Assembly: GCA_048939995.1 (NCBI GenBank)
Contig: JBHLOY010000013.1
Location: 13,333 to 77,332, forward strand
Source of the DNA: Promethearchaeota archaeon
Lineage (GTDB): Archaea; Asgardarchaeota; Lokiarchaeia; Sigyniarchaeales; SOKP01
Length of the DNA stretch: 64,000 nt
Direction of reading: 5' to 3'
This document shows positions 4,473-39,127 of the stretch, piece by piece. The notes beneath the pieces are model-generated. The model was given only the letters and a program-made list of their open reading frames with translations. It had not been told where the DNA came from and made no database searches. Each line of letters opens with the position of its first letter. Position 1 is the first letter of the stretch. The position numbers and the translations under genes were made by a program.

Positions 4473-5762
4473 TCAACCTAATAAAAGTGTGTAAACCATA
4501 GTATATCCTAAAATGATGAGGAAATGAATTGTCGCGAAAATCGCACCATTTTTTAAAAGGCGTCTGTAATTTAAATTGGCTACTTTGTACTTTTTTGCCA
4601 GTGATAAAGTGAGTAGATCACATGCAGAACCTTGTGGTAAAAAATTGCCAGCCATATTTACTCCACTGATGAATGCTATTATAATCGGGTTGGGAAGAGT
4701 GAATTCTCCGACTATTGCCGTAAAAATAGGGAGAAGAATGATGGTAACTGGTGTACCCGCAAGAAATGCAGATAACAAAGAAGAAAGTCCTAATGTGATC
4801 AGAACGGCAAGATAAATGTTATTATTTACAAAACTGATCAGCCCCGTAGAGATCAACTCTGAGAAGCCTAACCGTGCCAAGGAATTTGAAATGATAAACA
4901 TAATCGCAAATACGATAATGAGTTTCCATTCAATTTCATTCTTTACATCTGAGAATTCGGAAGTTTTAAAATGAAGGAGGAGAAGAATAGCTGCGGAGAT
5001 AATCGCAACAATAGCAGGTTCAAATCCTATGATCATAAACACGAATGTAGCTAAGAGAATGATAGTTGTCAGAAAAAAATATTTTCGGTCTCTGATTACG
5101 ATTCCAGGTTTTAGCATTGATAATAATATTTTTTTATTTTTCTCTGTTGGTTTCTCTTCTTTTCTTAGTATGAACCTGTCAATTAAAAAAAGCGTGATTA
5201 TTAAGGAGATCACAAATAAGATACCCATATTAGCGAAATATTCACCAAATCCCCACCCAAATTGTTTACCAATTATTAGATTTTTCAAGCTTGAAACTGG
5301 TGTAAGTATTGCACCAATATTTATAGTAATCGTCATTCCCATCATATAGGTGCCTGCACGTATCTCTAAAATTCTACAAGTCCTATAGATCAATGGTACT
5401 AAAATCAATGAGAGAGTTAAATCCTCAATAAAAGCTACCATAATGCTTGTAAACACGCAAATCATATAAAAGAACAACCGATTATTCCCTTTCGTAATAT
5501 GAATTAATTTAATTGCAAGGTATTCTAAAACTCTGTCACTAATTGCATAAAAAATAATTATTTGCATAGCAAAAATGAAGATTAGAGTGTTAAAGTTGAT
5601 AAATCCGAGTATTTCACCCTCTGTTATACCCAAAATCATCATTGAAATCACTGCAATGGTTCCAATAATTAATGCGATGGGAAAATAATCGATCTTACTT
5701 TGAGAATAAAATGCCATTAAAATCGCAAATAAGACCAAATTCAGTATTATTACGGGAAGCAT
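4473..5762 (-). CDS. SLC13/ArsB/NhaD (IT superfamily) permease
   Basis: ~12 TM; NIGAILTPVSSLKN and NMAGNFLPQGSA repeats. Confidence 0.8.
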   Translation of the reverse strand: MLPVIILNLVLFAILMAFYSQSKIDYFPIALIIGTIAVISMMILGITEGEILGFINFNTLIFIFAMQIIIFYAISDRVLEYLAIKLIHITKGNNRLFFYMICVFTSIMVAFIEDLTLSLILVPLIYRTCRILEIRAGTYMMGMTITINIGAILTPVSSLKNLIIGKQFGWGFGEYFANMGILFVISLIITLFLIDRFILRKEEKPTEKNKKILLSMLKPGIVIRDRKYFFLTTIILLATFVFMIIGFEPAIVAIISAAILLLLHFKTSEFSDVKNEIEWKLIIVFAIMFIISNSLARLGFSELISTGLISFVNNNIYLAVLITLGLSSLLSAFLAGTPVTIILLPIFTAIVGEFTLPNPIIIAFISGVNMAGNFLPQGSACDLLTLSLAKKYKVANLNYRRLLKNGAIFATIHFLIILGYTMVYTLLLG

Positions 5763-21721: not shown

Positions 21722-22010
21722 TTTAAAACACTGCTTTTAATACTTATACTTATTGTAATTTAATTTATATAATTAACCCTTGCAATAGAACTTTTTCAGT
21801 AATTCTTTTTAACTATTTAATTGAGCTTTGCTCATGGATTTTCAATGAGAGTGAGTATTAATGAAAGAGACTAATGAACCTAAAAAATTGAAACAATAAA
21901 AGATTTACTCAAATTTATATAATCATTTGGTTATAATAATATCAAACAACCAATTAATCCGTAATTATAATTTTTCTGATCTACAATCATTTTCTTTTGA
22001 TTTATACATC

Positions 22011-23558
22011 ATGTCAATAAATAGAAATAAATTATTAATGGAATTATTCGCGAATTTCATACAGGCAAATAAGGAAGTTGAAGCTATTATAGTTTCCGAT
22101 AAAGATGGATTAATAATTTCCGGAGAACGAAGAAAAGATGTGGATATAGAGTTAGTTTCGATAATGACTGCGGTGGTTAACCCTGTTATTGAGCGATTTC
22201 GTGATGAATTTTCCTATAAGAAATTTGGGACCGCAAGTTTTGATACTGAAAATAATCGTCTTTTGTTCATCACTATAACAGAAAATGTAACATTAACTTT
22301 AGTTATTGAAAATCTTGGCTCGATTGAGAAAATAGCCCCCTATGCGTATTTTCTTGCTGAAAAAGTGGCACAGATTATAGTTGCAACTAATGAAGATCTA
22401 ATTGAGGTATCAATTCCTAATTTTGATTATAAAACTGAAGGATATTATGGAAGTGATGCTCAACTTTTTCAAATTGGTTTAGAACCAGGTGGAGAATATA
22501 GATTTAAATTTATAGTTATAGGTGACCATGAAGTTGGTAAGACTTCAATTCTACGTAGATTTGTAGAAGGGAGATTCTTAGTAGATTATCGTACTACTAT
22601 TGGATTGAACGTTTTGACTCATAATTTCGAATTTTTTGGCAACAAAATTAACGTATTTCTCTGGGATATAGGAGCTCAACAATATTTTAAAAGATACCGT
22701 AAAGTTTATTACAAAGGTGCACAAGCTGCTTTTATCATTTTTGATTTAACAAACAAGGATTCTTTTTATAACGTAATGAATTGGTTTAATGAATTGAATG
22801 AGTTTAAGGAACATGAAATCTCAATAGTAGTCGTTGGAAATAAAAAAGATTTAGAACAGCAAAGAGAAGTTGATTATGAAGAGGCAACTACTTTAGCTGA
22901 AATGTTATCTGAAAAATATAACAAGAAAATTTCTTATATTGAAACCAGTGCTTTAACAGGAGAGAATATTGAAGAAGCATTTGGAATTGTATCCTATCAT
23001 TTTATAATGCTAAGCAAAGAATTTGAGGAAAAAAATTTAAGAGAAAAGATTTTTACTGAAATTAATTCGGTATTAGATACACGAAATTCACTTTCAATTG
23101 CATTTATATCAAAAAATTTCCAAAAGAATCCTATTATAATGCTTTTAAAAGAGATAGAACCTTTAGGATTGTCTTTAAAAATGGAAAAAAAAGATAAAGT
23201 GATCTATCAATTTGCAAATGGATTAACCTTGGAAAGTTACAATTTCGATTCAATGAAAGTTTCTGATTCTGATGGAGCTTTTGTAATTTTTGATGGGAAG
23301 GATAGAGATTCCATTGACCCGAAATGGAATAGTATTATATTACAAATTTTAAAAACAATCAAGGATAACACTGTGATTTTAATCGGTATAATTACTAAAA
23401 AAGATGTAAATTGGTCAAAAATGATGAGTGAGTTTAACTTTTATACAAAGTTAGAAGCAAAGCAAATCTCGTATTTTGTATTTAAAATTGACTCCGATTC
23501 TAAAATAGAATTATATGAACACATAAATACTATGTTCAATACTATTAGGAATCTTTAA
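22011..23558 (+). CDS. Roadblock - Rab-like GTPase - degenerate G-like domain fusion
   Basis: AIIVSDKDGLII (roadblock); GDHEVGKTS, TTIG, WDIGAQ, NKKD, ETSA; ATG 22011 preferred to TTG 21927. Confidence 0.88.
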   Translation: MSINRNKLLMELFANFIQANKEVEAIIVSDKDGLIISGERRKDVDIELVSIMTAVVNPVIERFRDEFSYKKFGTASFDTENNRLLFITITENVTLTLVIENLGSIEKIAPYAYFLAEKVAQIIVATNEDLIEVSIPNFDYKTEGYYGSDAQLFQIGLEPGGEYRFKFIVIGDHEVGKTSILRRFVEGRFLVDYRTTIGLNVLTHNFEFFGNKINVFLWDIGAQQYFKRYRKVYYKGAQAAFIIFDLTNKDSFYNVMNWFNELNEFKEHEISIVVVGNKKDLEQQREVDYEEATTLAEMLSEKYNKKISYIETSALTGENIEEAFGIVSYHFIMLSKEFEEKNLREKIFTEINSVLDTRNSLSIAFISKNFQKNPIIMLLKEIEPLGLSLKMEKKDKVIYQFANGLTLESYNFDSMKVSDSDGAFVIFDGKDRDSIDPKWNSIILQILKTIKDNTVILIGIITKKDVNWSKMMSEFNFYTKLEAKQISYFVFKIDSDSKIELYEHINTMFNTIRNL

Positions 23559-23592
23559 ATAAAGAAAAATAGATACTATGATAAGTTTAAAC

Positions 23593-26500
23593 TTATCTAG
23601 AGAAATATTCCTTTAACTCATGCTTAACTGAACCTTTTCCTTTGAGATCATAGAGTAATTCATCAGTACTATGAATAATTACCTCACTTAATTCGTGAGT
23701 CTCACGTAAGATATCAAATTGTCCTTTATAATACAGATCGATAATCTCATTAAATGCCTCCTCATATACTCCTTTCAATCCTATTGATTGAATAAATGCC
23801 TTATAATGATTGATTCTAACATTTTTCATAGGACCTTGAAATGAAAAAGACTCATTATTTTCTAGCAATTTAATAACAACAATGATTAAGAGCGTGTTTG
23901 CATTCTGAAAATCTTTACTTGATTTGATAATATCTTCATTAGATGTATCCTCAGTGTAAATTATTTGAATCGATCTAATTCTGTCCCTAATTGATGGATC
24001 TATATTTAGGAACGAAACTTGATCATCAAAAAGAATTAATCCATGGATTTTATTTTGAATATCATCATAGATTTGAGGATTGGAATAATATTTAATACCA
24101 ATTTCATCAAAATACTTCGTCAATAAATCGTTAATGCAGGAATAAACAAGTTCTACTTCTCCCATAACTAGTGGTGTTCCTGTTATTTCTAATTTTCGGT
24201 CTTGTTCATGTTTAGATTCTTGATTGTCAACATACATTTTAAGATTTTCAGAGACTATCTTACTTTCATTATATAGTTCAAGTGATTTTGAATAATCTCC
24301 AGATATTGCAGCTTTTTTGGATTCAATCTCATATTGATCCTTCAAATAGTTAAGACCTTTAATTGCGATATCGATTTGTTTTTGACGGTAAAAATCTGCA
24401 TTTTGAGAGTTTCCAAGAATCTCTTCAATAATAATAATTTCACCTGCAAATCCTGCTGCTTTGACATAATCTTTCTCTTCTGTTAATTTGTTAACATAAG
24501 CAATTACTTTCTCTCTTCTGGCAAGTAGATCTGCTTCAGTCTTATCTTTGAGCGTTTCATAATCTAATAAACTTAATTCTTCATAAATTTTCAACTTTGC
24601 CTTAGTTACTGGCTGCTTTTCTGATATTTGAATACCTATTTCCTTCTTCTTACTCTTTGATTTTTTTAGCACTACAATTCCTACTACCCCACCTATAGCT
24701 GCTCCTATTACAACAAATATTATCCATAATGGAAATTCAGATGGTTGAGAAGTGGATGTTATAGAAAAGCTATCTGTTGCGGCAGGACTCTGATGACCTG
24801 CACCATCAATTTGATATAAAAAGTAATAATAAATTCCTGGTTGAAGAGATTCCATATACTCATAATAATTACCCGTTAAGTTTATTGCAAACACGAATCC
24901 AGGGGTAGCTAAAGGATTTGCTTCATTATCTATAATTAATCTATACTTAATTATCCCAGAAGGATCGGAACCATCTTGCCATTCAAATATTAAAGTACCA
25001 CTTACAGCTCCTTGGGGAGCCTGTATTAACGACGGTGCTGGAGGAGCAATTGTATCTTTATATAAAACTATTAGCACAGGGTCGCTCAAATGATTAAGAG
25101 TATCATTTGCATAGATATAAACATAAAATCTTCCTTCTGGTAAACTATTCCAAATTAAATTATTGAATGGTTGGTTAATATTATTTCCCAACAAGATGTT
25201 AGTTGTGTTTACTTGATACCAAATTAGATCTAGATTAGCATCTGTAGCTAAAACATTGATAATAGGTGCTGCTCTGCAGTAAGTGTTATTCAACGGGAAA
25301 TTTAATGCAATTGAAGGTGCTATTGTATCTTTTATTATCGTTATCTCATCAAATCCAATAACTCCTAAAGTATTATTTATATAAAAACTAATCGTAATAG
25401 TACCATCTGATTTAGCGTCCCATGCTAATTGATTTATAGTCCCAGTTAGCCCTGTAAATGTATAATTTACTATTCCATTATCTAAAGTATACCAACTTGT
25501 ATCTAGATTGCTTCCACTTATATTAACAGCATAATTCGGCGCTGTATTACCATACACACCGTCTGAAATAGGAGTATTAATCATTATCATGGGAAAGAAG
25601 ATATCTTTATAAACAATAACTTCTGCTGTTCCTAAATTGCCTACTGTATCATTAGCATAAAATTTGATCATTATTGTTCCATTACCAACTTGCTCCCAAA
25701 CACTCTGAGCGATTGCTCCTGTCCATGTGTAATTATTAGTAACAATAGTTCCATTGTCCAATTGATACCATTCATTATCTAAATTAGCGTCATTAATATT
25801 AATAGTAATGCTTGGAGGTGAAATCCCAAACAAGTCATAATTATTTGGTTCTGTAATAATTATAGTAGGAGTAATTGAATCTCTATTGATTACCACACTC
25901 GCAGCATCCCAGTTACCAGCAGAATCATTTACATAAAATAGTATCGTAATAGAACCTTGACCTGCAGTATTCCATGCCGTAGAATCGATCGTTCCGCTCA
26001 ATGCTCCTGTGAAGTTATTTAGACCTCCATCAAGTGTGTACCAAATCCTATCTCTATTCGATTCAGTGATAGAAAGAGTATAACTTGGAGGAAGGCTACT
26101 GAACCATGCTCCAGGTAATGGTGAATCGATACTATCTATTGAAGGATTAACGGTATCTCTATAAATTGCTACGCTCGCAGTATCCCAGTTACCCGCAGAA
26201 TCATTTACATAAAATATAATTGTAATGGAACCTTGGCCTGCATTATTCCATGCTAAAGAGTTGATTGTTCCGCTTAATGCTCCGGTATAGTTATTTAAGC
26301 CTCCATCAAGCGTATACCAAATCCTATCTCTATTCGATTCAGTGATAGAAAGACTATAACTTGGAGGGAGGCTACTGAACCATGCTCCAGATAATGGTGA
26401 ATTGATACTATCTATTGAAGGATTAATGGTATCTCTATAAATTGCTACGCTTGCAGTATCCCAGTTACCCGCAGAATCATTTACATAAAATATAATTGTA

Positions 26501-29500
26501 ATGGAACCTTGGCCTGCATTATTCCATGCTAAAGAGTTGATCGTTCCGCTTAATGCTCCGGTATAGTTATTTACCCCTCCATCAAGCGTATACCAAATCC
26601 TATCTCTATTCGATTCAGTGATAGAAAGACTATAGCTTGGAGGGAGACTACTGAACCATGCTCCAGATAATGGTGAATCGATACTATCTATTGAAGGATT
26701 GATAGTATCTTTATAAATTTGTACGGTATCAGAGGTTTCAATGCCAAAATTGTTGTTTAAATAAAATGTAAGAGTAATAGAACCTTGACCAGCATTATCC
26801 CATGCTGTGGAATCAATTACACCAAACCAAGAATTAGATTGATTAGCATTACTAGTAATAGTATAATTGTTAAGTCCATTATCAAGAGTATACCATATAG
26901 AATCACGATCGTTCCCGCTCACATAAACATCATAATCTGGAATAGATCCAAACCATTCGGCAGTACTAGGTGAATTAATAGAAATTGATAAATCTGAAGT
27001 TTTTGTTACTCCTACACTTGCAGAATCCCAATTACCCAAGGAATCATTTACAAAAAATGTAATCGTGACAGCACCTAAACCAGCATTGCCCCATGCGATA
27101 TAATCAATTGTTCCACTCGTTGCTCCCGTGTAGTTGTTTAAACCATCATTGAGGGTATACCAAATCTCATCTAAATTCGCTTCGGTAATGGAAAGACTAT
27201 AACTTGGTGGGGTTGAATGGTTTGAGCCAGATGAAGGTGAATCGATACTAACTGAAGGTTTGATAATATCTTTTCTAACTATTACTTCTTCATAATTAAT
27301 ATTACCTAATGTATCATTTGCGTAGAATCGAATTATTACTGTTCCATTTGGTCTTCCGTTCCACGTAGTCTGATCGAGACTCCCTATTGCAGCGACAGGA
27401 GTGGAATTAGTGGTTCCACCATCTAAGCTATACCAAATAGAATCTAAATTGGGATCTGTAACTGTAAGATTATAATTAGGCGCCATCGATCCAAATAACT
27501 CATTCGGGTTAGGAGAGTTAATGTTTATATCTGGTGCTGTGGTATCTTCACCTACTTGATATTCAGCTCCAATTGAGTAAAAACTGCTTGGGTCATATTG
27601 ATTGTTGTATTCAGTAGCAATCCAATCTACTGAACGAGCAATATTAGATAATCGAACTTCATCCATGATACCTTCTAAGTTATCAGGACTTCTAGCAATA
27701 GTTAGAGAATCTATTATTGTTTCAATCATTTCTGAAAAAGTGGCCGTATTTGGATCTTGAGTCCCATTAATAAAAATTTTCATTGTATTGCCAACTCTAA
27801 CACATGTGATACTAACCCATTTATTAAGCGAAATCAATGTCTGACTCTTTAAACTAGTTGAACCAATCCCATTTAATCTAAAATAAATAGCTCTATCCCT
27901 ATAAATAAAAGAGGAATAAGCATCAGTATAAATACCTTTGGTTACTGTATCAGGATCATTACTTACATCATATGCCATTACCCAATATTGGATAGTTAAA
28001 TTCTCGGTCAAATCTAATGAAACATCATTTCCACAATCAACATAATCATCGATTCCGTCAAGTTCTAGACTCCCATCAAGTCTTCCAGGAATTTGATCTC
28101 CAGGATCCATCGTTCCATACGAAGTACCATCATTATTGTTGGTTGTGGAATCCTTTATTGGATTTGTAGGATCTTCAGATAAATGCCATACTCCAACATA
28201 ATTAGTATCCCATACTCCATCGGGGTTTTGAATTGAATACATGGTTGAATTTCCATAATACATATAGATTTTAGTGTCTACCATGGGTGAAAGAGAAGGA
28301 ATGCGTACCCAAGATACTAAAAATGCATGTGTTGTATTATGATCTCGATTAAATAATTCAATTTCATGATCAAGCCAATTCTTACCATCATAAAAAGCTA
28401 TATCGTTACCATTAGATTGAACATCAGTATGTAAGTCCATATCATAAAGAGATATTAAAATAGGAAAATTAGTGAGATTACTCGATCCAGAGATTTTAGT
28501 ATGATCAATTATTATTTCTTTATAATATTTAAAGCTATTCAAAGAAGGTCGAAGTAATTCTTCAGTGCTTAGTGTAAGTGTTGGTTCTGGCTCTACAAAT
28601 ATCCTTAAGTAGATATCATCCACAAATAGCGTGTTAAATTCATTAGGTGATGCCCAATAAATACCTGTGGAGAATTTATCGGTTGGTTCAGAACCTAAAT
28701 TAATCGAAGTGTTATGAATCTCTAAGTTACCATCTAACCATAGCTTAGCCAATCCATAACTACTGGAAACGTTAACTTGTACATCCAATGTATGCCAGGT
28801 ACCCTTAGATATAGTGTTGGTCTCTAAATAACCATAGGCTTCTCCTGCAACAGCATTCCACATATATAAAGTCATATCATCATTTATAGTAACACTAATC
28901 AAATTTTGCCATACTGTGGCTGTGTCAACAAACTGTATAACTGTTACCCTGTCTGTAGTACTAAAACTAGGATCAAGATAAATATGTACGTGGGCATAAA
29001 GGCTTGCTTCATCTGGAAAATCCTCAAAAACCATAGCCTGAGGAGTAGTAACATTGTCCATATCACACTTTGCAGCATAATTGCCTGTGTGAACCTGATC
29101 AGTTGATGCTATGATTGAATCCCCTACAGATCCAGTACTATTTCCATCCCATCCGTTCAAATTACCGCTTTCGAAACCATCATAAAAAAAGAATATATTA
29201 CTTGGGTCAACCAACGGGGAATTAGCTAATTTATTGCCGTAGTATAGATAATAATTATTATCAAATGACAAGGCTTGTATTGGTTTCTGGGTTTTAAACC
29301 ATATTTTAGTTGATTCATTGTTCCATGAGGAGTCAAGATCCAACATTCTATCCAGAACATTCCACATAGTGCCATTCCAATATACTAATCGGATATCATC
29401 ACCATCTGCTTGACTTTTACCCTTAATGACCAGATCAGCGTGATCGAAAGTCAAAGAAACTGTATAGCCAGAAGGTATATCAGAACTACCAGTTGTCACA

Positions 29501-30663
29501 GTAACTTTTCTACGATATTTCCAGTTTTGATTAAACCAAGAACCGTATGTTTCTTCAGATTCAAGTGTTAAACTTGGTGATGTTGCGACTAATAACCTAA
29601 TCTTTAGATCATCATAATATGAGGGTATAGTAGTCCAAGTTAAGAAACCAATTTGTCCAGCATTCAAATGAGAAGTATTTGTATTATCAATTCTTAATTG
29701 ATCATCTAAATATATCTTAAATCGTGATCCAAGAGCCTCTACTTTTAAGTTATACCATTGGTCACTCACTAAATTCGATTCATCTACACCATCATAAACA
29801 GGTGTCTCCCAAATACCACCAGTACAATCACCATACGCTACTTCTCTGTCCCAATATCCAATTCCCGCACAATAGAAATTATTTGAGTCAGAGTAACGAA
29901 ATAATATTCCTACTCCAAAACTAATGCCAACATTTTTTATACGGACCTCTATTGATGCATTTTCGACAGTATAGGAATTTAATAAACTTCTACGATCTGT
30001 AAGACCTGAATTTTCGCGATATTCATTATTTATAACAGACCAAGTTCCGCTTATAACCGTCCATCCATTAGCAGGTCCATCAGCCTGTGTAAAATCATCG
30101 TAATAATCATATACTTTACTTTTATTTGTTGGGGGACTACCAGCAACCTCATTACCATAATAGAGATAATAATTAGTGTCAGTAGCACCCACGCTTATGG
30201 AACTTTGAGTTTTAAACCAAATTTGAGTACTAATAGTATTAAAATTTGTTTCATTTACACGATCGAGTTCTAACCATGTCTTATTAGTTGAGTTATACCA
30301 TAAGATTCGAAGGTCATTTCCATCAGCTCGAAGTTTTCCTACAGAAATTAATTCAGCTGAATTAACTGATAAATTAACCGAATATCCTTTAGGAAGAATT
30401 TTCGTATTTACATTTGTAATATTTATTTGAACACGATACATATATGATGAATCCCACCAATTTTTTAAATTTGGTGGTTGACTAGTCTGCAGCTTATCGG
30501 GATAAAAATTATCGCGAGTATTATTGAAACCGTTAATCTTTATAAAATTATCAGCAATATCAATTGTTGATATTATATTACACGCCAAGATAATAGTTAA
30601 AACCAAAATTTTAGATTTAACCTTTTTCAACTTAATTCCTCCATTCTTATACCTATATTTCAT
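23593..30663 (-). CDS. Giant single-pass surface protein: DUF2341/ConA-LamG modules, Ig-like stalk, TM, ~350-aa cytoplasmic domain
   Basis: DGNDLRI, YYLYYGN, YVGVWHL, DEVRLS..WIATEYNNQ; WYTLD/FYxND repeats; GAAIGGVVG TM followed by KKSKSKKK. Confidence 0.85.
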   Translation of the reverse strand: MKYRYKNGGIKLKKVKSKILVLTIILACNIISTIDIADNFIKINGFNNTRDNFYPDKLQTSQPPNLKNWWDSSYMYRVQINITNVNTKILPKGYSVNLSVNSAELISVGKLRADGNDLRILWYNSTNKTWLELDRVNETNFNTISTQIWFKTQSSISVGATDTNYYLYYGNEVAGSPPTNKSKVYDYYDDFTQADGPANGWTVISGTWSVINNEYRENSGLTDRRSLLNSYTVENASIEVRIKNVGISFGVGILFRYSDSNNFYCAGIGYWDREVAYGDCTGGIWETPVYDGVDESNLVSDQWYNLKVEALGSRFKIYLDDQLRIDNTNTSHLNAGQIGFLTWTTIPSYYDDLKIRLLVATSPSLTLESEETYGSWFNQNWKYRRKVTVTTGSSDIPSGYTVSLTFDHADLVIKGKSQADGDDIRLVYWNGTMWNVLDRMLDLDSSWNNESTKIWFKTQKPIQALSFDNNYYLYYGNKLANSPLVDPSNIFFFYDGFESGNLNGWDGNSTGSVGDSIIASTDQVHTGNYAAKCDMDNVTTPQAMVFEDFPDEASLYAHVHIYLDPSFSTTDRVTVIQFVDTATVWQNLISVTINDDMTLYMWNAVAGEAYGYLETNTISKGTWHTLDVQVNVSSSYGLAKLWLDGNLEIHNTSINLGSEPTDKFSTGIYWASPNEFNTLFVDDIYLRIFVEPEPTLTLSTEELLRPSLNSFKYYKEIIIDHTKISGSSNLTNFPILISLYDMDLHTDVQSNGNDIAFYDGKNWLDHEIELFNRDHNTTHAFLVSWVRIPSLSPMVDTKIYMYYGNSTMYSIQNPDGVWDTNYVGVWHLSEDPTNPIKDSTTNNNDGTSYGTMDPGDQIPGRLDGSLELDGIDDYVDCGNDVSLDLTENLTIQYWVMAYDVSNDPDTVTKGIYTDAYSSFIYRDRAIYFRLNGIGSTSLKSQTLISLNKWVSITCVRVGNTMKIFINGTQDPNTATFSEMIETIIDSLTIARSPDNLEGIMDEVRLSNIARSVDWIATEYNNQYDPSSFYSIGAEYQVGEDTTAPDININSPNPNELFGSMAPNYNLTVTDPNLDSIWYSLDGGTTNSTPVAAIGSLDQTTWNGRPNGTVIIRFYANDTLGNINYEEVIVRKDIIKPSVSIDSPSSGSNHSTPPSYSLSITEANLDEIWYTLNDGLNNYTGATSGTIDYIAWGNAGLGAVTITFFVNDSLGNWDSASVGVTKTSDLSISINSPSTAEWFGSIPDYDVYVSGNDRDSIWYTLDNGLNNYTITSNANQSNSWFGVIDSTAWDNAGQGSITLTFYLNNNFGIETSDTVQIYKDTINPSIDSIDSPLSGAWFSSLPPSYSLSITESNRDRIWYTLDGGVNNYTGALSGTINSLAWNNAGQGSITIIFYVNDSAGNWDTASVAIYRDTINPSIDSINSPLSGAWFSSLPPSYSLSITESNRDRIWYTLDGGLNNYTGALSGTINSLAWNNAGQGSITIIFYVNDSAGNWDTASVAIYRDTVNPSIDSIDSPLPGAWFSSLPPSYTLSITESNRDRIWYTLDGGLNNFTGALSGTIDSTAWNTAGQGSITILFYVNDSAGNWDAASVVINRDSITPTIIITEPNNYDLFGISPPSITININDANLDNEWYQLDNGTIVTNNYTWTGAIAQSVWEQVGNGTIMIKFYANDTVGNLGTAEVIVYKDIFFPMIMINTPISDGVYGNTAPNYAVNISGSNLDTSWYTLDNGIVNYTFTGLTGTINQLAWDAKSDGTITISFYINNTLGVIGFDEITIIKDTIAPSIALNFPLNNTYCRAAPIINVLATDANLDLIWYQVNTTNILLGNNINQPFNNLIWNSLPEGRFYVYIYANDTLNHLSDPVLIVLYKDTIAPPAPSLIQAPQGAVSGTLIFEWQDGSDPSGIIKYRLIIDNEANPLATPGFVFAINLTGNYYEYMESLQPGIYYYFLYQIDGAGHQSPAATDSFSITSTSQPSEFPLWIIFVVIGAAIGGVVGIVVLKKSKSKKKEIGIQISEKQPVTKAKLKIYEELSLLDYETLKDKTEADLLARREKVIAYVNKLTEEKDYVKAAGFAGEIIIIEEILGNSQNADFYRQKQIDIAIKGLNYLKDQYEIESKKAAISGDYSKSLELYNESKIVSENLKMYVDNQESKHEQDRKLEITGTPLVMGEVELVYSCINDLLTKYFDEIGIKYYSNPQIYDDIQNKIHGLILFDDQVSFLNIDPSIRDRIRSIQIIYTEDTSNEDIIKSSKDFQNANTLLIIVVIKLLENNESFSFQGPMKNVRINHYKAFIQSIGLKGVYEEAFNEIIDLYYKGQFDILRETHELSEVIIHSTDELLYDLKGKGSVKHELKEYFSR
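25882..26709 (-). repeat. Three tandem 276-bp intragenic repeats (92-aa Ig-like unit)
   Basis: GAAGGATT marker at 26141, 26417, 26693 (period 276). Confidence 0.92.
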
Positions 30664-31103
30664 TCTTGTAAATTTTAAAAATATACAAGAAAGTATATAT
30701 AATATAGTGTATGTTTATTTAAATCTTTCAAAAATAAAGGAGGCACTAATGGAGATAATTCTAAATAAGATCCAAGTAATTAAAGGGAATAAAAGGAGAA
30801 TTTTAAAATAAAAAAACTAAAATTTTCCTTCTTATGTAAACTTTATCGGAATTTATGAAGTAATTAAAAAAGAAATAAATGGTGTAAACGCTTCAGAAGC
30901 AGTTGCAAGGATTTAGGACGGTTAAGAGGACAATTTCAATTTTAAGTTTATACAATTTTATCTTTATTAAGATAGAAAGTACTTATAAAATAATATTAGA
31001 ACCTTAAACTTATGTAAATTAATACTAGGATTAACCTATTAAGAACCTTTAGATAAAAAAAGAAATATCAAAAATAAAAATAGATTTAATATTAAGGTTA
31101 TAT

Positions 31104-34100
31104 TTATCGATGAAGATATTCTTTTAACTCATACATAACTAAACCCTTTTCTTTGAGATCATAGAGTAATTCATCAGTACTATGAATAATTACTTCACTT
31201 AATTCATGAGTCTCACGTAAGATATCAAATTGTCCTTTAAAATAGAGATCGATAATTTCATTAAATGCCTCCTCATACACTCCCTTCAATCCAATTGATT
31301 CAATGAATGCCTTATAATGATTTATTCTGACATTTTTCATAGGACCTTGAAATGAAAAAGACTCATTATTTTCTAGCCATTTAATAACAACAAGGATTAA
31401 GAGCGTATATTCATTCTGAAATTCTTTACTTAATTTAATAATAGCTTCATTAGATGTATCCTCAGTGTAAATTATTTGAATCGATCTAATTCTGTCTCTT
31501 ATTGATGGATCTATATTTAGGAATGAAATTCGATCATCAAAAAGTATTAATCCATGTATTTTGCTTTGAACATCGTCATAGATTTGAGGATTGGAATAAT
31601 ATTTAATACCAACTTCATCAAAATACTTTGTCAGTAAATCATTTATGCAAGAATAAACAATTTCTACTTCTCCCACAACTATTGGCGTTTCCGCTACTTC
31701 TAATTTTCGGTCTTGTTCAAGTTTAGCTTGATTGTCCATATACCTTTTAAGATTTTCTGATACTATCTTACTTTCATTATATAGTTTAAGTGATTTTGAA
31801 TAATCTCCAGATATTGCAGCTTTTTTGGATTCAATCTCATATTGATCCTTCAAATAGTTAAGTCCTTTAATTGCGATATCGATTTGCTTCTGACGGTAAA
31901 AATCTGCATTTTGAGAGTTTCCAAGAATCTCTTCAATAATAATAGTTTCACCTGCAAATTCTGCTGCTTTGACATAATCGTTTTCTTCTGTTAGTTTATT
32001 AACATGAGTAATTACCTTCTCTCTCCTAATAAGTAAATCTGCTTCAGTCTTATCTTTGAGTGTTTCATAATCTAATGATTTAAATTCTTCATATACTTTC
32101 AATTTAGGCTTAGTTATTGGCTGTTTTTCCGTTATTTGAATAGGTACTGCTTTCTTCTTCTTCTTACTCTTTGACTTTTTTAGAACTATAGCTCCCACGA
32201 CTCCACCGATAGCAACTCCTATTACAATGAATATAATCCAGAATGGAAATTCTGATGGTTGAGAACTGGACATTATCGAAAAACTGTCTGTTTCAGCAGG
32301 ACTCACATTACCTGCTCCATCAATCTGATATAAAAAGAAATAATAAGTTCCTGGTTGAAGAGATCCAGTATATTCATAATAATTCCCAGTTATGTTTATT
32401 TCAAATACAAATCCAGGTGTGATCAAAGGATTTGCTTCATTATCTATAATAAGTCTATATCTTAGTATCCCAGAAGGATCAGAACCTTCATACCATTCGA
32501 ATATTAATGTACCACTTACTTCTCCTTGAGGAAAATTTATTAAAATTGGTACTGAGGGAGCAATTGTGTCCTTGTATAAAACTAACAAGATATAGTTACT
32601 CAAATGATTAACAGTATCATTTGCATAGATGTAAACATAAAATTGTCCTTCTGATAAACTATTCCAAATTGAAATATCTAATTGCTGATTGATATTATTT
32701 CCCAGTAATATACTAATTGAGTTAACTTGATACCAAATTGAATCTAGATTTGGATCTATAGCTAATACATTGATCATTGGTGATATTCGACAATATGAAT
32801 TATTCAATGGGAGATTTAATATAACCGATGGTGCTAAAGTGTCTTTTATAATAGTTATCTCATCAAATCCTATAACTCCTAACGTGTTATTTATATAGAA
32901 TCTAATTATTACATCACCATCACTTTGGGCGCTCCATGCTAATTGGCTTATAGTTCCTGTTAATCCTGTAAACGTATAATTAACTAACCCATCATCTAGC
33001 GTATACCACCTTGAATCTAAATTACTTCCACTTACACTAACAATAAAACTAGGTGCTGTACTGTTAAAAACCTCGTTAAAATTGGGATTGTTAATTGTTA
33101 TTATAGGAGCGAAGACATCCTTATAAACTATCACTTCTGCAGATCCTAAATTACCCAGCGTGTCATTTGCATAAAACCTAATGATAACTGTACCATTACC
33201 AACTTGATCCCATACGCTTTGAGCGATAAAACCTGTCCATGTGTAATTATTAGTAATAATAGTTCCGTTGTCCAATTGATACCATTCATTATCTAAATTA
33301 GGGTCATTAATATTTATGGTAATGTCTGGAGGTTCATTTCCAAACAATTCATAATTAGTTGGTTCTATAATAGTAACGGTAGGAGAAATTGTATCTCTAT
33401 TAATTACTACACTCGCAGCGTCCCAGTTACCTGCAGAATCATTTACATAAAATATAATCGTAATAGAACCTTGACCTGCATTATTCCATGCCGTAGAGTC
33501 GATCGTTCCGCTCAATGCTCCTGTGTAGTTATTTAAGCCTCCATCGAGCGTATACCAAATGTTATCTCTATTCGATTCAGTGATAGAAAGAGTATAACTT
33601 GGAGAGAGGTTACTGAACCATGCTCCAGACAATGGTGAATCGATACTATCTATTGAAGGATTAATTGAGTCTCTATAAATTACTACGCTTGCAGTATCCC
33701 AGTTACCCGCAGAATCATTTACATAAAATATAATTGTAATAGAACCTTGACCTGCATTATTCCATGCTATAGAGTCGATCGTTCCGCTCAATGCTCCTGT
33801 GTAGTTATTTAAGCCTCCATCAAGCGTATACCAAATCCTATCTCTATTCGATTCAGTGATAGAAAGAGTATAACTTGGAGGGAGGCTACTGAACCATGCT
33901 CCAGACAATGGTGAATCGATACTATCTATTGAAGGATTAATTGAGTCTCTATAAATTACTACGCTTGCAGTATCCCAGTTACCCGCAGAATCATTTACAT
34001 AAAATATAATTGTAATAGAACCTTGACCTGCATTATTCCATGCTATAGAGTCGATCGTTCCGCTCAATGCTCCTGTGTAGTTATTTAAGCCTCCATCAAG

Positions 34101-37100
34101 CGTATACCAAATCCTATCTCTATTCGATTCAGTGATAGAAAGAGTATAACTTGGAGGAAGGGTACTAAACCATGCTCCAGATAATGGTGAATCGATACTA
34201 TCTATTGAAGGATTGATAGTATCTTTGTAAATTTGTACGGAATCAGAGGTTTCAATACCAAACGTATTGTTTAAATAAAATGTAATCGTATTAGAACCTT
34301 GACCAGCATTATCCCATGCTGTAGAATCAAATATTCCAAACCAAGTATCTGTTAGATTAGCACTACTCGTAATAGTATAATTGTTAAGTCCATTATCAAA
34401 AGTATACCATATGGAATCACGATCATTTCCGCTCACATAAACATCATAATCAGGATTAGATCTAAACCATTCGGCAGCATTAGGTAAATTAATAGAAATT
34501 GATAAATCTGAAGTTTTTGTTACTCCCACACTCGCTGAATCCCAATTTCCCACGGAATCGTTTACATAGAATGTAATTGTGACTGCACCTAAACCTGCAT
34601 TACCCCAAGCTATAGAATTAATTGTCCCACTCAATGCCCCTGTGTAGTTGTTTAAACCATCATTAAGGGTATACCAAATCTTATCTCTATTCGCTTCGGT
34701 AATGGAAAGACTATAACTTGGTGGGGTTGAATGGTTTGAACCAGGCGAGGGCGAGTTGATACTGATTGAAGGTTTAATAATATCTTTCCTAACGATTATT
34801 TCTTTATAACTAATATTACCTAATGTATCATTTGCATAAAATCGAATTGTTACTGTTCCATTACCTAATGCACTCCACATGTTTTGATCAATGGTTCCAC
34901 TAGCGCTAACAGGCGTAGAATTAGTGGCCCCTCCATCTAAGGTATACCAAATAGAATCTAAATTGGGATCCGTAACTGTAAGATCATAATTAGGCGCGCT
35001 CGATCCAAATATATCATTCAAGTTTGGAGAATTAATAGTTATTTCTGGTCCTGAAGTATCTTCACTCTGATATTCAGCTCCTACAGAGTAAAAGCTATCT
35101 GGATCATATTGATTGTTGTATTCGGTAGCAATCCAATCTGCAGAACGACCAACCTGAGAAATCCGAACCTCATCAATTTGTCCTAACCACGGATATGACC
35201 ATGCTACTCCTTCAGGTTGATCTCCATGCCCGATTCTAAAAGAAAACGGCAGAGCACTTACAATATTATTTGTTTTAGATAAGGTGGCAGGATCTGGTAT
35301 TCCATCTACATATATTCTCATTTCAGTTCCATTATATGTAGCAACGACATGATGCCATATATCTGATGAGATGGTTTGTGCAGTTTCTAAATCACTCTCA
35401 TTTCCAGGAAGTTGAAAGCTCATCAACTGACTATTAAGATCCATTACAAGGCGATATCCATTATAAAAACCTTTATGGTTGAGAGGACCCATCCAAGGAT
35501 GAGTTAAAGGATATTTCATCCATAACTGTATAGTTATTTGATTAGTTGTAAGATCTAAGCTTGTATCATTTCCGCAATCGATAAAGTGATCACTAAAATT
35601 TTGGCCATAACCAATAGATCCCGTAACTTTGCTTGGAATATAAGTTATATTTCCTAATCCACCTTGACCATGATTCCCATAGTGACTACTATCTGCATAT
35701 TCATTCACTGTTCCTATTCCTATCTCTTTAAGATGCCAAACTCCAACATAATTTGGATTCCATACTCCCATGGGGTTCTCTTGAGACCCCATCGTTGAAT
35801 TTCCATAATACATAGTGATGTTAGTATCAATTGAAGATGATAGAGATGGAATTCGAACCCAAATAATTAATTGAGCATGAGTAGCACTATAACTTTGATT
35901 GAATAGTTCAATTTCATGATCTAACCACGTATCTCCGCTATAAAAGGCAATATCATCACCATCTGTTTGAGTATGAATATGTAAATCTGAATCAAACAAA
36001 GAAATTAGTACGGGAAAATTAATTAGATCGTTTAATCCAGTTACCATTGTTGAGTTAATTGTTATGACTTTATAATAAGCGAAATAATTCACATTCCGAG
36101 CTAAATTTGTTTCTTCAATTCCCACAGAATAAAAAGATTTAGGATCATTTTGATTATTATATTCGGTGGCAATCCAATCTGCAGAATGTGTTTTACTAGA
36201 AATACGTATTTCATCGTATTTGCCTTCAAAATGACCAAGTTGACTGATATTAACAGAAGCACCCCATAACCAATCCTCCAGTTGAGCTAATTGGGTCCAA
36301 TAGGTATCAACATTAATAATATCAAATGTACTAGGAGATCCATCAAGATACATTGTTACATTTCTGTTAGAATAATTAAATGTAACAATCAGATAATGCC
36401 AGATTCCATTAGTAAAGGGGTTTGTTTTTAAGTTATAATTAAGACTATTTCCTCCCCAGGGATAGAAGAAATTATCTCCATTTTGATTAACAGACCATTC
36501 AAAACCGTCTCTATGATTAGGAGCTATTCTATTAAAACGATTACTAGTAGTCATGATTCTTTGATATTCACCAGTTTTAGACGAATTTACCCAATTAATC
36601 CATAGGGATAAAGTTCCCTCATCGTTTATTGAATTTAAAGATGAACTTCTTGAAATATTGATAAAATCATCAATCCCATCAAAATCATAACCCTTTCCAA
36701 TTTGAGAATTAACTAAATCTATATTATCCATTGAACCATTAGTTATTCCATTATTTCCATGGTATGTACTATCATATACATCATTCATTATTCCAGTTGG
36801 AGCATCATTTAAATGATAAACTCCAACATAATTTGGATTCCATACTCCCATAGGGTTTTCTTGAGGACCCATAGTTGAATTTCCATAATACATATAGATT
36901 TTTGTGTCAGTGGATGTCGAGAGCGAAGGAATGCGAACCCAAGCAATTAATTGGGCATGGGTAATGTTAAAATCTTGATTAAATAGTTCTATTTCGTGAT
37001 CTAACCATTCAATACCATTGGTAAAAACAATATCATCTCCATCTGGTTGAGCATGGTCATGTAAGTCTGAGTCATACATAGAAATTAGTACAGAAAAATT

Positions 37101-38408
37101 AATAAGAGAGCTTGAACCAGAGACTTTGGTATGGTCAATTGTAATTTCTTTGCGAAAATTAAAAGAGTTCACATTTGGAGGGCGTTTAAATGTCGTATAT
37201 TCTCTACTTACTGAATAAAATGAGCTAGGTTCGTATTGATTATTAAATTCCGTTGCAATCCAATCTGCAGAGCATGTTGTATTTAAGAGTCTTAATTCAT
37301 CAATTTTGCCTTTATAGAGTTGTAGGCTAGGACTATCTAAATTTATACCTATAGTAGCATTATTAGCATTAAAATCTATATTGTTAACAAATTCATCAAC
37401 TTGTTTGGAACCATTAATATATAATTTTAGAGTTGTTCCATCATATGTTCCTACTAAATGAGTCCAAATGTTATCATTTATACCATAATCAGAAATGGCA
37501 TATCCCATATTAAGCCCATCACCAATAGCTATTCTTGCATTTCTGCTAGATGATGAATGAAAGCCTTGAACCCTAATCCCTATCTGATCACCCCATGAAA
37601 AACCGCTACAAAAAATTGGAGAACGTGTGTCTATTGTTGTATTAAAAATTCCATTATACCATGTTTCAATGGTGAATGAGTTTATAGGTTTTAATCCTGA
37701 ATTGTTTCCTAAACTTATATAATCATTTCTTCCATCAAATTCTAAACTTCCAGCAATATGTCCTTTTACTTGATCATTACTACTCATTGACCCATGGGGA
37801 GTCCCATGATAAGAGTTGGATGTACTGTCCTTAACTTGAGATATAGATGGATCCTCCTTTAAATGCCATACCCCTTTATAGTTATTATTCCAAACACCTG
37901 TAGGATTTTCTCGAGCGTCCATAGTAGGATTTCCATAATACATAGTGATTTCAGTGTCCACTGATGTAGACAAGGAAGGTATTCGAACCCAGGCAACTAA
38001 ATGAGCATGAGTAGCGCTATAATTTTGATTAAATACTTCAATTTCATGGTCTAACCACTCATTCCCTATTGCAAATGCAATATCATTTCCATTAGATTGA
38101 ACATTTTGTCGTAAATCTTTATCGATAATCGAGATTAATAAAGGAAAATTCGTATGGCTTCCTATACCACTAACTTTCGTATTATCAATAGTTATTACTT
38201 TATAAAAATTGAAGTCAGTATAATTAATAGGAGAATTAGCTAGAGGAATCTTGATATTTAAATTATCTAGATTATTATGTGAGCGATTATTTTTTATAAG
38301 AATGTCTGATAAATTAATAATCGATAATGAACTACACGTAAAAAGGAGAATTAAAATTATAGCTTTAAAATTTACTTTTTTCAACCTACTTACCCTATTC
38401 TTATACAT
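31104..38408 (-). CDS. Paralogous giant surface protein: 3x(DUF2341+LamG), Ig-like stalk, TM, cytoplasmic domain
   Basis: Three KxITI..NF.V/LLIS..WLDHEIE..GVW/YHL..WIATE units; C-terminal half closely similar to 23593-30663. Confidence 0.85.
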   Translation of the reverse strand: MYKNRVSRLKKVNFKAIILILLFTCSSLSIINLSDILIKNNRSHNNLDNLNIKIPLANSPINYTDFNFYKVITIDNTKVSGIGSHTNFPLLISIIDKDLRQNVQSNGNDIAFAIGNEWLDHEIEVFNQNYSATHAHLVAWVRIPSLSTSVDTEITMYYGNPTMDARENPTGVWNNNYKGVWHLKEDPSISQVKDSTSNSYHGTPHGSMSSNDQVKGHIAGSLEFDGRNDYISLGNNSGLKPINSFTIETWYNGIFNTTIDTRSPIFCSGFSWGDQIGIRVQGFHSSSSRNARIAIGDGLNMGYAISDYGINDNIWTHLVGTYDGTTLKLYINGSKQVDEFVNNIDFNANNATIGINLDSPSLQLYKGKIDELRLLNTTCSADWIATEFNNQYEPSSFYSVSREYTTFKRPPNVNSFNFRKEITIDHTKVSGSSSLINFSVLISMYDSDLHDHAQPDGDDIVFTNGIEWLDHEIELFNQDFNITHAQLIAWVRIPSLSTSTDTKIYMYYGNSTMGPQENPMGVWNPNYVGVYHLNDAPTGIMNDVYDSTYHGNNGITNGSMDNIDLVNSQIGKGYDFDGIDDFINISRSSSLNSINDEGTLSLWINWVNSSKTGEYQRIMTTSNRFNRIAPNHRDGFEWSVNQNGDNFFYPWGGNSLNYNLKTNPFTNGIWHYLIVTFNYSNRNVTMYLDGSPSTFDIINVDTYWTQLAQLEDWLWGASVNISQLGHFEGKYDEIRISSKTHSADWIATEYNNQNDPKSFYSVGIEETNLARNVNYFAYYKVITINSTMVTGLNDLINFPVLISLFDSDLHIHTQTDGDDIAFYSGDTWLDHEIELFNQSYSATHAQLIIWVRIPSLSSSIDTNITMYYGNSTMGSQENPMGVWNPNYVGVWHLKEIGIGTVNEYADSSHYGNHGQGGLGNITYIPSKVTGSIGYGQNFSDHFIDCGNDTSLDLTTNQITIQLWMKYPLTHPWMGPLNHKGFYNGYRLVMDLNSQLMSFQLPGNESDLETAQTISSDIWHHVVATYNGTEMRIYVDGIPDPATLSKTNNIVSALPFSFRIGHGDQPEGVAWSYPWLGQIDEVRISQVGRSADWIATEYNNQYDPDSFYSVGAEYQSEDTSGPEITINSPNLNDIFGSSAPNYDLTVTDPNLDSIWYTLDGGATNSTPVSASGTIDQNMWSALGNGTVTIRFYANDTLGNISYKEIIVRKDIIKPSISINSPSPGSNHSTPPSYSLSITEANRDKIWYTLNDGLNNYTGALSGTINSIAWGNAGLGAVTITFYVNDSVGNWDSASVGVTKTSDLSISINLPNAAEWFRSNPDYDVYVSGNDRDSIWYTFDNGLNNYTITSSANLTDTWFGIFDSTAWDNAGQGSNTITFYLNNTFGIETSDSVQIYKDTINPSIDSIDSPLSGAWFSTLPPSYTLSITESNRDRIWYTLDGGLNNYTGALSGTIDSIAWNNAGQGSITIIFYVNDSAGNWDTASVVIYRDSINPSIDSIDSPLSGAWFSSLPPSYTLSITESNRDRIWYTLDGGLNNYTGALSGTIDSIAWNNAGQGSITIIFYVNDSAGNWDTASVVIYRDSINPSIDSIDSPLSGAWFSNLSPSYTLSITESNRDNIWYTLDGGLNNYTGALSGTIDSTAWNNAGQGSITIIFYVNDSAGNWDAASVVINRDTISPTVTIIEPTNYELFGNEPPDITININDPNLDNEWYQLDNGTIITNNYTWTGFIAQSVWDQVGNGTVIIRFYANDTLGNLGSAEVIVYKDVFAPIITINNPNFNEVFNSTAPSFIVSVSGSNLDSRWYTLDDGLVNYTFTGLTGTISQLAWSAQSDGDVIIRFYINNTLGVIGFDEITIIKDTLAPSVILNLPLNNSYCRISPMINVLAIDPNLDSIWYQVNSISILLGNNINQQLDISIWNSLSEGQFYVYIYANDTVNHLSNYILLVLYKDTIAPSVPILINFPQGEVSGTLIFEWYEGSDPSGILRYRLIIDNEANPLITPGFVFEINITGNYYEYTGSLQPGTYYFFLYQIDGAGNVSPAETDSFSIMSSSQPSEFPFWIIFIVIGVAIGGVVGAIVLKKSKSKKKKKAVPIQITEKQPITKPKLKVYEEFKSLDYETLKDKTEADLLIRREKVITHVNKLTEENDYVKAAEFAGETIIIEEILGNSQNADFYRQKQIDIAIKGLNYLKDQYEIESKKAAISGDYSKSLKLYNESKIVSENLKRYMDNQAKLEQDRKLEVAETPIVVGEVEIVYSCINDLLTKYFDEVGIKYYSNPQIYDDVQSKIHGLILFDDRISFLNIDPSIRDRIRSIQIIYTEDTSNEAIIKLSKEFQNEYTLLILVVIKWLENNESFSFQGPMKNVRINHYKAFIESIGLKGVYEEAFNEIIDLYFKGQFDILRETHELSEVIIHSTDELLYDLKEKGLVMYELKEYLHR
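33396..34223 (-). repeat. Three tandem 276-bp intragenic repeats
   Basis: GAAGGA marker at 33655, 33931, 34207; long identical stretches between copies. Confidence 0.92.
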
Positions 38409-38554: not shown

Positions 38555-39127
38555 CTATCGTAAAAAAAATTTTGATTTATTAGGAATAGGAAGTGAATTA
38601 GGAATTTCCTCAAGATTAATATTCTTTAACATTAACCTAGTTAAAGTATTAAACACTTTTTCTATATTTACCCCTGTCTTGCTAGAGCACTCTATAAAAT
38701 CATCAAGCCCCATTAATTTTGCGCTGTTCTCGCCTTTCTCGAATGATACTTTTCTTTGATTCTCTAGATCAGTCTTTCCACCGACTAGAATGATTGGAAA
38801 TATCTGTTTTGATTCACTAATGATCGATAACCAATCACTCAAATGATAGAGTGAAGATTGATTCGTGATATCATACATCATTACTCCGCCCATTGCTCCA
38901 AGCACATATTGAGGAAAGAGGAACCTAAAACTCTTTTCCCCACCAAAATCCCAGATCATTAGCTTTACGTTAAATCCATCTATCGAAAGGCTTGTAGCAT
39001 CAAAATCGACTCCAATTGTTTTATAAGTATTTGGGATGAATTTTGTTGTTAAAAACCGCTGAGTTAAGGTTGTTTTGCCACACCCAGCATCACCAAAAAT
39101 AACAACTTTGAAAATTGCATCAAACAT
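38555..39127 (-). CDS. Rab-like small GTPase
   Basis: GDAGCGKTT, YKTIGVDF, WDFGGE, GGKTD, ECSSK. Confidence 0.92.
   Translation of the reverse strand: MFDAIFKVVIFGDAGCGKTTLTQRFLTTKFIPNTYKTIGVDFDATSLSIDGFNVKLMIWDFGGEKSFRFLFPQYVLGAMGGVMMYDITNQSSLYHLSDWLSIISESKQIFPIILVGGKTDLENQRKVSFEKGENSAKLMGLDDFIECSSKTGVNIEKVFNTLTRLMLKNINLEEIPNSLPIPNKSKFFLR

Follow-up and report, generated by a model that had tools for sequence, protein, structure and literature searches.

We analysed a 64,000-nt window of Promethearchaeota DNA (the window is the whole stretch, and all coordinates given here are positions in it), in which two tandem minus-strand open reading frames (ORFs), A and B, are open throughout and encode giant surface proteins. 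At a probability of roughly 0.5, we read A and B as paralogs, arranged in tandem, within a lineage-specific family of single-pass surface proteins whose tails are functionally coupled to a small GTPase, the product of the RG gene that converges on A. The descriptive parts of this reading, i.e., the architecture, a dead PD-(D/E)xK-like fold in the tail and the conserved pairing with RG, are very probably correct. The analysis used Pfam, PDB sequence and HMMER searches, Foldseek and VIA comparisons, and AlphaFold2 (AF2) models. The main features are as follows.

Gene A, 23593-30663, minus strand: 2356 amino acids (aa), with signal/anchor, heads, repeat stalk, juxtamembrane module, transmembrane (TM) helix and tail
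Head of A, 27604-30546, minus strand: three DUF2341 plus ConA-like modules (Pfam, identity profile)
Stalk of A, 25024-27603, minus strand: ~92-aa repeats, with three 276-nt copies, 92% identical, at 25867-26719
Juxtamembrane module of A (aa ~1881-1975), 24739-25023, minus strand: beta-rich, recognised by shared motifs
TM helix of A (aa 1978-1999), 24667-24732, minus strand: two overlapping GxxxG motifs
Tail of A, K-rich linker and helical part (aa 2000-2163), 24175-24666, minus strand: from the AF2 model
Tail of A, terminal alpha/beta domain (aa 2164-2356), 23596-24174, minus strand: predicted PD-(D/E)xK-like fold plus C-terminal helical subdomain
Gene B, 31104-38408, minus strand: 2434 aa, same plan as A, all heads of the Laminin_G_3 type
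Parts of B, minus strand: tail 31107-32180, TM helix 32181-32246 and 276-nt repeats 33387-34214, as for A
RG gene, 22011-23558, plus strand: Roadblock-like N domain, Ras/Rab-like G domain and ~180-aa C-extension, convergent with A

Fold and lost acidic triad of the cytoplasmic tail

Besides the N-terminal signal/anchor, A and B each contain one hydrophobic helix (aa 1978-1999 in A and aa 2055-2076 in B), and its two overlapping GxxxG motifs agree with the single TM segment described in a first-pass annotation of this DNA. The tandem GxxxG is conserved only in the clade of window-type receptors (W clade, below). Directly after the helix stands the cluster KKSKSKKK, followed by a K-rich tail of 357 aa in A and 358 aa in B. 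N-x-S/T sequons number 46 and 54 in the two ectodomains, as compared to ~35-37 expected, and only two in each tail. Considering the lysine cluster, which follows the positive-inside rule, and the distribution of sequons, the tail is placed in the cytoplasm, as had been claimed, and an extracellular tail is contradicted.

The ~350-aa tail had been described as a helical part followed by an alpha/beta domain, and an AF2 model of the whole tail (predicted local distance difference test score, pLDDT, 80.6) gave the same arrangement: a disordered K-rich linker (the first ~27 aa), a TPR/MIT-like three-helix unit, a long helical hairpin and the alpha/beta domain. The terminal domain, modelled alone with 25 homologs, reached a pLDDT of 90.2 and a predicted template-modelling score (pTM) of 0.87. 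In this model a helix (residues 6-24) is followed by three strands (29-31, 45-48 and 68-74), a second helix (79-89) and a fourth strand (94-100), i.e., the alpha-beta-beta-beta-alpha-beta core order that characterises the PD-(D/E)xK superfamily, with helices on either side of a four-stranded mixed sheet, and then by a helical subdomain that bears an invariant H/E/L motif. In two VIA searches with the terminal domain, nearly all of the top 50 matches were PD-(D/E)xK-fold proteins (Z 4-6.5), among them AF1548 (Z 6.5, 128 residues aligned), Bax1 (6.1), TIP26 (5.9), the N-terminal domain of YqgP (5.2) and the Prp8 endonuclease-like domain (4.8), together with Can1/Can2, McrC, the R2 RLE, SfsA, viral PA endonucleases and many restriction enzymes. 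The Foldseek list for the same domain was dominated by MspJI, the R2 RLE, Bax1, EcoT38I and McrC, with nothing better than E 0.01; Foldseek with the whole tail gave nothing at E<=0.001. Leads from the ESM Atlas were sub-threshold (RE_TaqI and RE_MjaI, 0.84-0.87), and the best PDB sequence matches of the tail were to unrelated proteins (E 0.45). Since the neighbour list is uniform and is joined by the strand order and the motif evidence, a PD-(D/E)xK-like fold is supported for the modelled domain. With the whole tail, VIA returned mostly generic helical matches (TPR, MIT and SNAP; Z up to 8.9), which give the helical part no specific identity. Neither Roadblock nor longin domains appeared among the fold-search matches listed for the tail.

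The tail thus has its core in common with the PD-(D/E)xK superfamily, in which the cytosolic N-domain of the rhomboid YqgP is one of its neighbours. It is unlike the known families of that superfamily in having no sequence or profile match, in the loss of the acidic triad, in the extra C-terminal helical subdomain, and in its place, after TPR-like helices, at the C-terminal end of a giant surface protein that crosses the membrane once. Inactive PD-(D/E)xK domains that serve protein contacts are known, e.g., the endonuclease-like domain of Prp8 and the N-domain of TIP26.

To what extent the active site is preserved was seen from a comparison of soluble and membrane-anchored homologs, with the triad positions assigned by the strand order of the model rather than by residue-level superposition. 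Among the soluble relatives (n=31), E follows beta1 in 30, D precedes beta2 in all 31, and beta3 holds D or E in all 31 (motifs YSEP, DGLIL and QFDFT). In the membrane-anchored tails (n=42), the corresponding counts are 1 for E, 3 for D and 0 for an acidic third residue. The anchored tails carry N/D/Y, N/H and I/L/V at these positions, and both A and B read N, H and I. These results, together with the fold neighbours, support a catalytically dead tail domain and, with it, the earlier tentative guess at a dead PD-(D/E)xK fold.

A HMMER scan of 1.84 billion representatives returned only 50 proteins at E<=0.001, and in most of them the domain was C-terminal or nearly so. Of 134 other genomes in the same family, 65 contained the domain by profile search, as compared to only 2 of 265 genomes elsewhere in the phylum; as far as sequence searches go, then, it is nearly confined to one Asgard family. 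Two further paralogs of the A/B tail are encoded in the same genome, on the contigs labelled C6 and C38, so that the tail, present in 66 of 135 family genomes, is conserved well beyond the A/B duplication, contrary to one doubt raised earlier. Roughly half of the homologs lack a TM helix, and many of these bear HTH (helix-turn-helix) arrays, four DUF4379 treble-clef zinc fingers or an RNase_T exonuclease domain; the HTH arrays were seen only in soluble relatives. Soluble members with an intact triad, e.g., L081:70-2853, L131:4889-8749, L044:8531-10738 and P0049, reach up to nine copies per genome. This soluble family, which is lineage-specific, could be nucleases of mobile elements or of defence. 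In a quick maximum-likelihood tree, the anchored tails formed one clade (SH-aLRT 98) nested among the soluble ones. The simplest reading would be that a DNA-linked, nuclease-like domain was recruited to a receptor once and that the active site was lost.

A tail that still acts on nucleic acids, whether as a tethered nuclease or binder for DNA uptake, in anti-virus defence or as a Notch-like released fragment, would suit the restriction-endonuclease-like fold and the soluble relatives, which are fused to DNA-binding modules and keep the acidic triad. We consider such a role very improbable, since the triad is replaced in essentially all 42 anchored tails, defence-type neighbours are not recurrent, and Pfam (E<=1) detected neither HTH nor any other DNA-binding family within the tail. 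The last result also sets A and B apart from ToxR-like membrane-tethered one-component regulators, which carry a cytoplasmic DNA-binding domain.

Pairing with the Roadblock-GTPase gene

The RG ORF is open from a TTG at 21927, and its likely start is M29 at 22011, which gives a protein of 515 aa, as in orthologs. Its G domain is a clear match to Pfam Ras (2.1e-44) and has the G1 P-loop, G4 (NKxD) and G5 motifs as GDHEVGKTS, GNKKD and SAL; its G3 motif is WDIGAQ, in which A and G have changed places compared with DxxGQ. The N domain scored E 0.031 against Robl_LC7 (14.5 bits against a 23-bit cutoff), and the top PDB match of its profile was a Roadblock/LC7 protein, weak at E 0.16. The ~180-aa C-extension weakly resembles the C-terminal half of G domains (PDB profile E 0.04; hhalign probability 23%) and is a possible degenerate (pseudo-)G domain.

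We scored the gene surroundings of 72 homologs from other genomes plus the four genes of the window's own genome. In the two receptor clades nearest to A and B, i.e., the window-type (W) and C6-type (C) clades, 26 of 29 genes were followed, 18-68 bp downstream, by an RG gene in convergent orientation; contig ends cut off part of two of the RG genes. The pairs came from 16 sampled genomes in 2 genera. The window's own genome encodes four RG genes, two of which adjoin tail receptors: the one beside A, and a second that lies 19 bp from the 3' end of the receptor paralog encoded on contig C6 (the tails of this paralog and of A are 34% identical). Two of the three unpaired W/C genes, B in this window and L115, each stand upstream in a tandem pair of receptors. 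The third, L088 of the W clade (G102:C68), has a stand-alone 125-aa Roadblock/LC7-like ORF, 5323-5700 on the plus strand, convergent and ~1 kb downstream, and a small GTPase lies 5.5 kb away at this locus. Within 6 kb, the GTPase cluster recurred at 27 of 28 loci and any other family at 5 or fewer, so that the pair appears to have been kept while its flanks turned over. The RG tree splits into W and C lineages as the receptors do, and the two unpaired RG genes of the same genome fall outside. In these two clades the adjacency of receptor and GTPase is thus recurrent, contrary to another doubt raised in the first-pass annotation. None of the soluble homologs (n=32) had an adjoining RG or other GTPase gene; small GTPases lay 2.2 and 3.3 kb away at two of these loci.

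Two Roadblock-type genes were also noted near the C6 receptor: besides RG on one side, an ORF of 307 aa with a Roadblock-like N domain (C6:24582-25505, plus strand) lies ~700 bp upstream, so that genes of this type flank the receptor on both sides.

Proximity to a GTPase gene as such means little here, since the genome contains 63 Ras-like ORFs in 3.75 Mb. Additional small GTPases were found within ~7 kb at ~8 of 28 loci, about as often as that number of ORFs would give by chance. Small-GTPase genes had been reported on both sides of the A/B pair, and they are indeed present on both; the recurrent partner, however, is only the RG gene downstream of A. The Rab-like gene upstream of B (Pfam Ras 5e-43) was dismissed as a partner, being not recurrent and at chance level.

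A second receptor-GTPase module in the same genome lends independent support to the theme. Its receptor (C6:140603-145738, minus strand) is of the DUF2341 type and 1711 aa long; it has the juxtamembrane module and TM helix in common with A and B, but its long tail is helical and TPR-like. The GTPase gene lies downstream on the same strand (C6:139109-140308, minus strand) and encodes 399 aa, comprising a Rag/Arf-like G domain and, at the C-terminus, a Roadblock-like domain. The two genes are separated by 295 nt in this genome; in three other species (L016, L020 and L022) the frames abut or overlap by 4 nt or fewer.

In the mechanism that we propose, lectin-like DUF2341 and ConA/LamG modules, swapped or diversified as units, would be displayed outside the cell on the repeat stalk, while inside, TPR/MIT-like helices would be joined to a dead PD-(D/E)xK domain recruited from soluble, HTH-linked and probably active nuclease-like proteins. 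The tail would no longer engage nucleic acids; anchored in the membrane, it would be a platform that docks or regulates a single dedicated switch, the RG GTPase, which has no membrane anchor of its own and whose gene lies tail-to-tail with that of the receptor. Binding of a ligand by the ectodomains, or their clustering, would then be coupled to RG or, with the coupling reversed, RG would set the location of the receptor. The GxxxG motifs of the TM helix and the usual dimer habit of the PD-(D/E)xK fold could aid clustering; that clustering is itself the transmitted signal is speculation. The gene architecture, the topology signals, the fold class, the lost triad, the purifying selection on the tail and the clade-matched pairing are observations, and what we infer is that tail and RG interact physically, in which direction the signal would run and that there is a ligand. 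That the tail and the convergent RG form a physical outside-in or inside-out pair, i.e., a receptor wired to a Ras-superfamily switch through a dead nuclease domain, and one of several parallel Asgard modules, is a tentative proposal that we hold at somewhat less than even odds.

Several observations weigh against a functional coupling of tail and GTPase through a dead nuclease fold. The structural Z-scores are modest (maximum 6.5), the tail has no Pfam match at E<=1 and no significant match to any known nuclease family, and T stands, even in the soluble relatives, at the place of the third motif where its canonical Lys would be expected. The receptor-RG pairs come from 2 genera of one family only; related genomes do not count as independent cases, and the tree was a quick one. 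Some RG genes stand without any receptor. The same tail domain is found in sister clades (an S8-peptidase type and a small third clade) that have no RG neighbour, and RG and receptor genes are convergent and not co-transcribed, so that the pairing is no operon. The last two points would also fit another view, in which A and B are plain adhesins or envelope proteins that do no more than fix the cell to surfaces, partners or polysaccharide, the tail is a structural or sorting anchor without a part in signalling, and RG lies nearby for reasons other than direct contact, e.g., shared regulation or a shared terminator; lectin-like heads, a repeat stalk and many sequons are what archaeal surface proteins typically have. 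On the other hand, a folded domain of ~190 aa and ~165 aa of helices have been kept under purifying selection, and the tail is matched clade by clade with its own RG lineage while other neighbours turn over, which is hard to explain for a passive anchor. We regard plain adhesins as rather unlikely, although they are the strongest competitor to a tail coupled to RG.

Two further loci of the same genome bear on these exceptions. At C38:91919-95186 (minus strand), two tandem RG-type genes (521 and 523 aa) stand beside a zinc-finger-like ORF with no receptor near, so that RG proteins are not exclusively linked to receptors. At C38:677-4189 (minus strand), a receptor with a Peptidase_S8 (subtilisin) ectodomain shares the juxtamembrane module, the TM helix and the dead-nuclease tail, the last being 28% identical; its clade has 10 members, with an RG neighbour in none, and a plain small GTPase lies 3.8 kb from the C38 receptor.

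Asgard archaea are eukaryotes' closest relatives, and their genomes hold dozens of small GTPases. To our knowledge, almost nothing is known of how these GTPases are controlled. A Roadblock-Ras/Rab-like GTPase fusion has been listed for a cultured Asgard archaeon in a structural survey, according to which the layout of the genome does not allow a partner to be assigned to an individual GTPase (Tran et al., 2024; PMC10933270). RG shares the plan of such fusions, a Roadblock-like N domain followed by a G domain, and is unlike those described in having a fixed membrane-protein neighbour and a ~180-aa C-extension. The idea of a membrane-anchored platform for a Roadblock-associated GTPase without a lipid anchor is also found in Ragulator-Rag and MglB-MglA. 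Here, however, the anchored element would be a dead nuclease fold rather than a Roadblock/longin dimer, the Roadblock-like domain lies within the GTPase polypeptide, and beyond the weak Roadblock match of RG there is no homology to LAMTOR or MglB. If the coupling holds, receptor-linked control of a small GTPase would here be built from unrelated parts. A literature search found no description of a nuclease-fold-tailed receptor or of a receptor-RG gene pair.

The receptor tail and RG are a specific, clade-matched candidate pair for signalling from the surface to a GTPase. If the two interact, surface receptors would be shown to have been coupled to Ras-superfamily switches already in archaeal kin of the eukaryotic ancestor, and an inactivated restriction-endonuclease fold would have found a new use.

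Ectodomains and the divergence of A and B

Pfam identified three DUF2341 domains in A and three in B (60.5 and 68.9 bits; cutoff 23.4), in accordance with the three DUF2341-linked ConA/LamG modules per protein that had been described. In A, the ConA-like jelly rolls that follow are of the 3keto-disac_hyd, Polysacc_lyase and Laminin_G_3 types, and in B all three are Laminin_G_3, which scored 53.9 and 135.4 bits in the two proteins, above gathering scores. These head modules are those of DUF2341/LamG surface proteins of archaea and bacteria, and relatives of A and B are annotated "DUF2341 domain-containing protein"; neither that annotation nor the Pfam models include the cytoplasmic tail or the GTPase pairing.

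The stalk is built of ~92-aa repeats, and the three 276-nt tandem copies in each gene are 92-96% identical inside the gene, which points to ongoing concerted evolution within the stalk. The same copies are a likely cause of contig breaks in relatives. The claim of an Ig-like stalk stood in part: the repeats are there, but their Ig-like nature, although plausible, comes from a Big_13 match under the Pfam threshold, and PDB sequence searches gave no match for either the stalk repeat or the juxtamembrane module. The latter also had no Pfam match; it is common to other receptor families of the same genome, i.e., the S8-peptidase receptor and helical-tail receptors.

The two proteins are 14-30% identical in head modules 1 and 2 and 58-64% identical in the third DUF2341, and from A~1003/B~1081 to the C-terminus the identity is 70-94%, a profile that matches the divergent heads and nearly identical stalk, TM helix and tail reported before. 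Synonymous divergence (dS) is saturated in the heads (1.1-1.4) and ranges from 0.17 to 1.0, in patches, over the stalk, TM helix and tail. The ratio of nonsynonymous to synonymous divergence (dN/dS) is 0.17-0.28 in the tail, which by this measure is under purifying selection, and 0.55-0.62 in the heads, where saturated dS makes it unreliable. Since dS is low (0.2-0.6) in the 3' part, the similarity of A and B there exceeds what constraint alone would give and points to more recent shared ancestry. The similarity that had been put down to conservation is therefore real, but it is not conservation alone; gene conversion, or replacement of the heads by recombination, would account for part of it. 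Very recent gene conversion between A and B was ruled out, since their longest exact nucleotide match is only 75 nt.

A 2349-aa relative from another genus is a mosaic in which module 1 resembles that of A and the next modules resemble those of B, so that the heads evolve by module shuffling. Tandem pairs of such giants are present in another genus as well. The locus thus documents how a giant surface protein diversifies, with the heads shuffled and the stalk, TM helix and tail homogenised.

Mosaic heads, the recurrence of tandem pairs and the higher dN/dS of the heads relative to the tail would also be expected if A and B served in polymorphic cell-cell recognition of self and non-self or of a partner (a syntrophic partner or kin), with the GTPase controlling the polarity or localisation of the receptor and not receiving its signal. 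Considering that the head ratios suffer from saturation, we find this unlikely as a separate explanation; it overlaps with the coupling of tail and RG proposed above and differs from it mainly in the direction of control.

Further features of the locus

The window is AT-rich (about 30% GC), and close relatives of its proteins carry annotations of metagenome-assembled genomes of Promethearchaeota/Lokiarchaeota. Two small features adjoin the receptor genes.

Plain Ras/Rab-like GTPase gene, 38555-39127, minus strand: 190 aa, same strand as B and 147 bp upstream of it
Perfect palindrome of 18 nt, 23580-23597, no strand: GATAAGTTT/AAACTTATC, overlapping the stop codon of A

The palindrome, read directly from the sequence, is housed by the 34-bp gap that separates the convergent RG gene and gene A, and it is possibly a two-way terminator hairpin for both. 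Elsewhere in the window, the gene at 17125-19839 (minus strand) encodes a surface protein of the NosD/beta-helix kind; it carries a TM helix, a winged-helix segment on the cytoplasmic side, which is weakly similar to MarR/TrmB, and additional TM helices.

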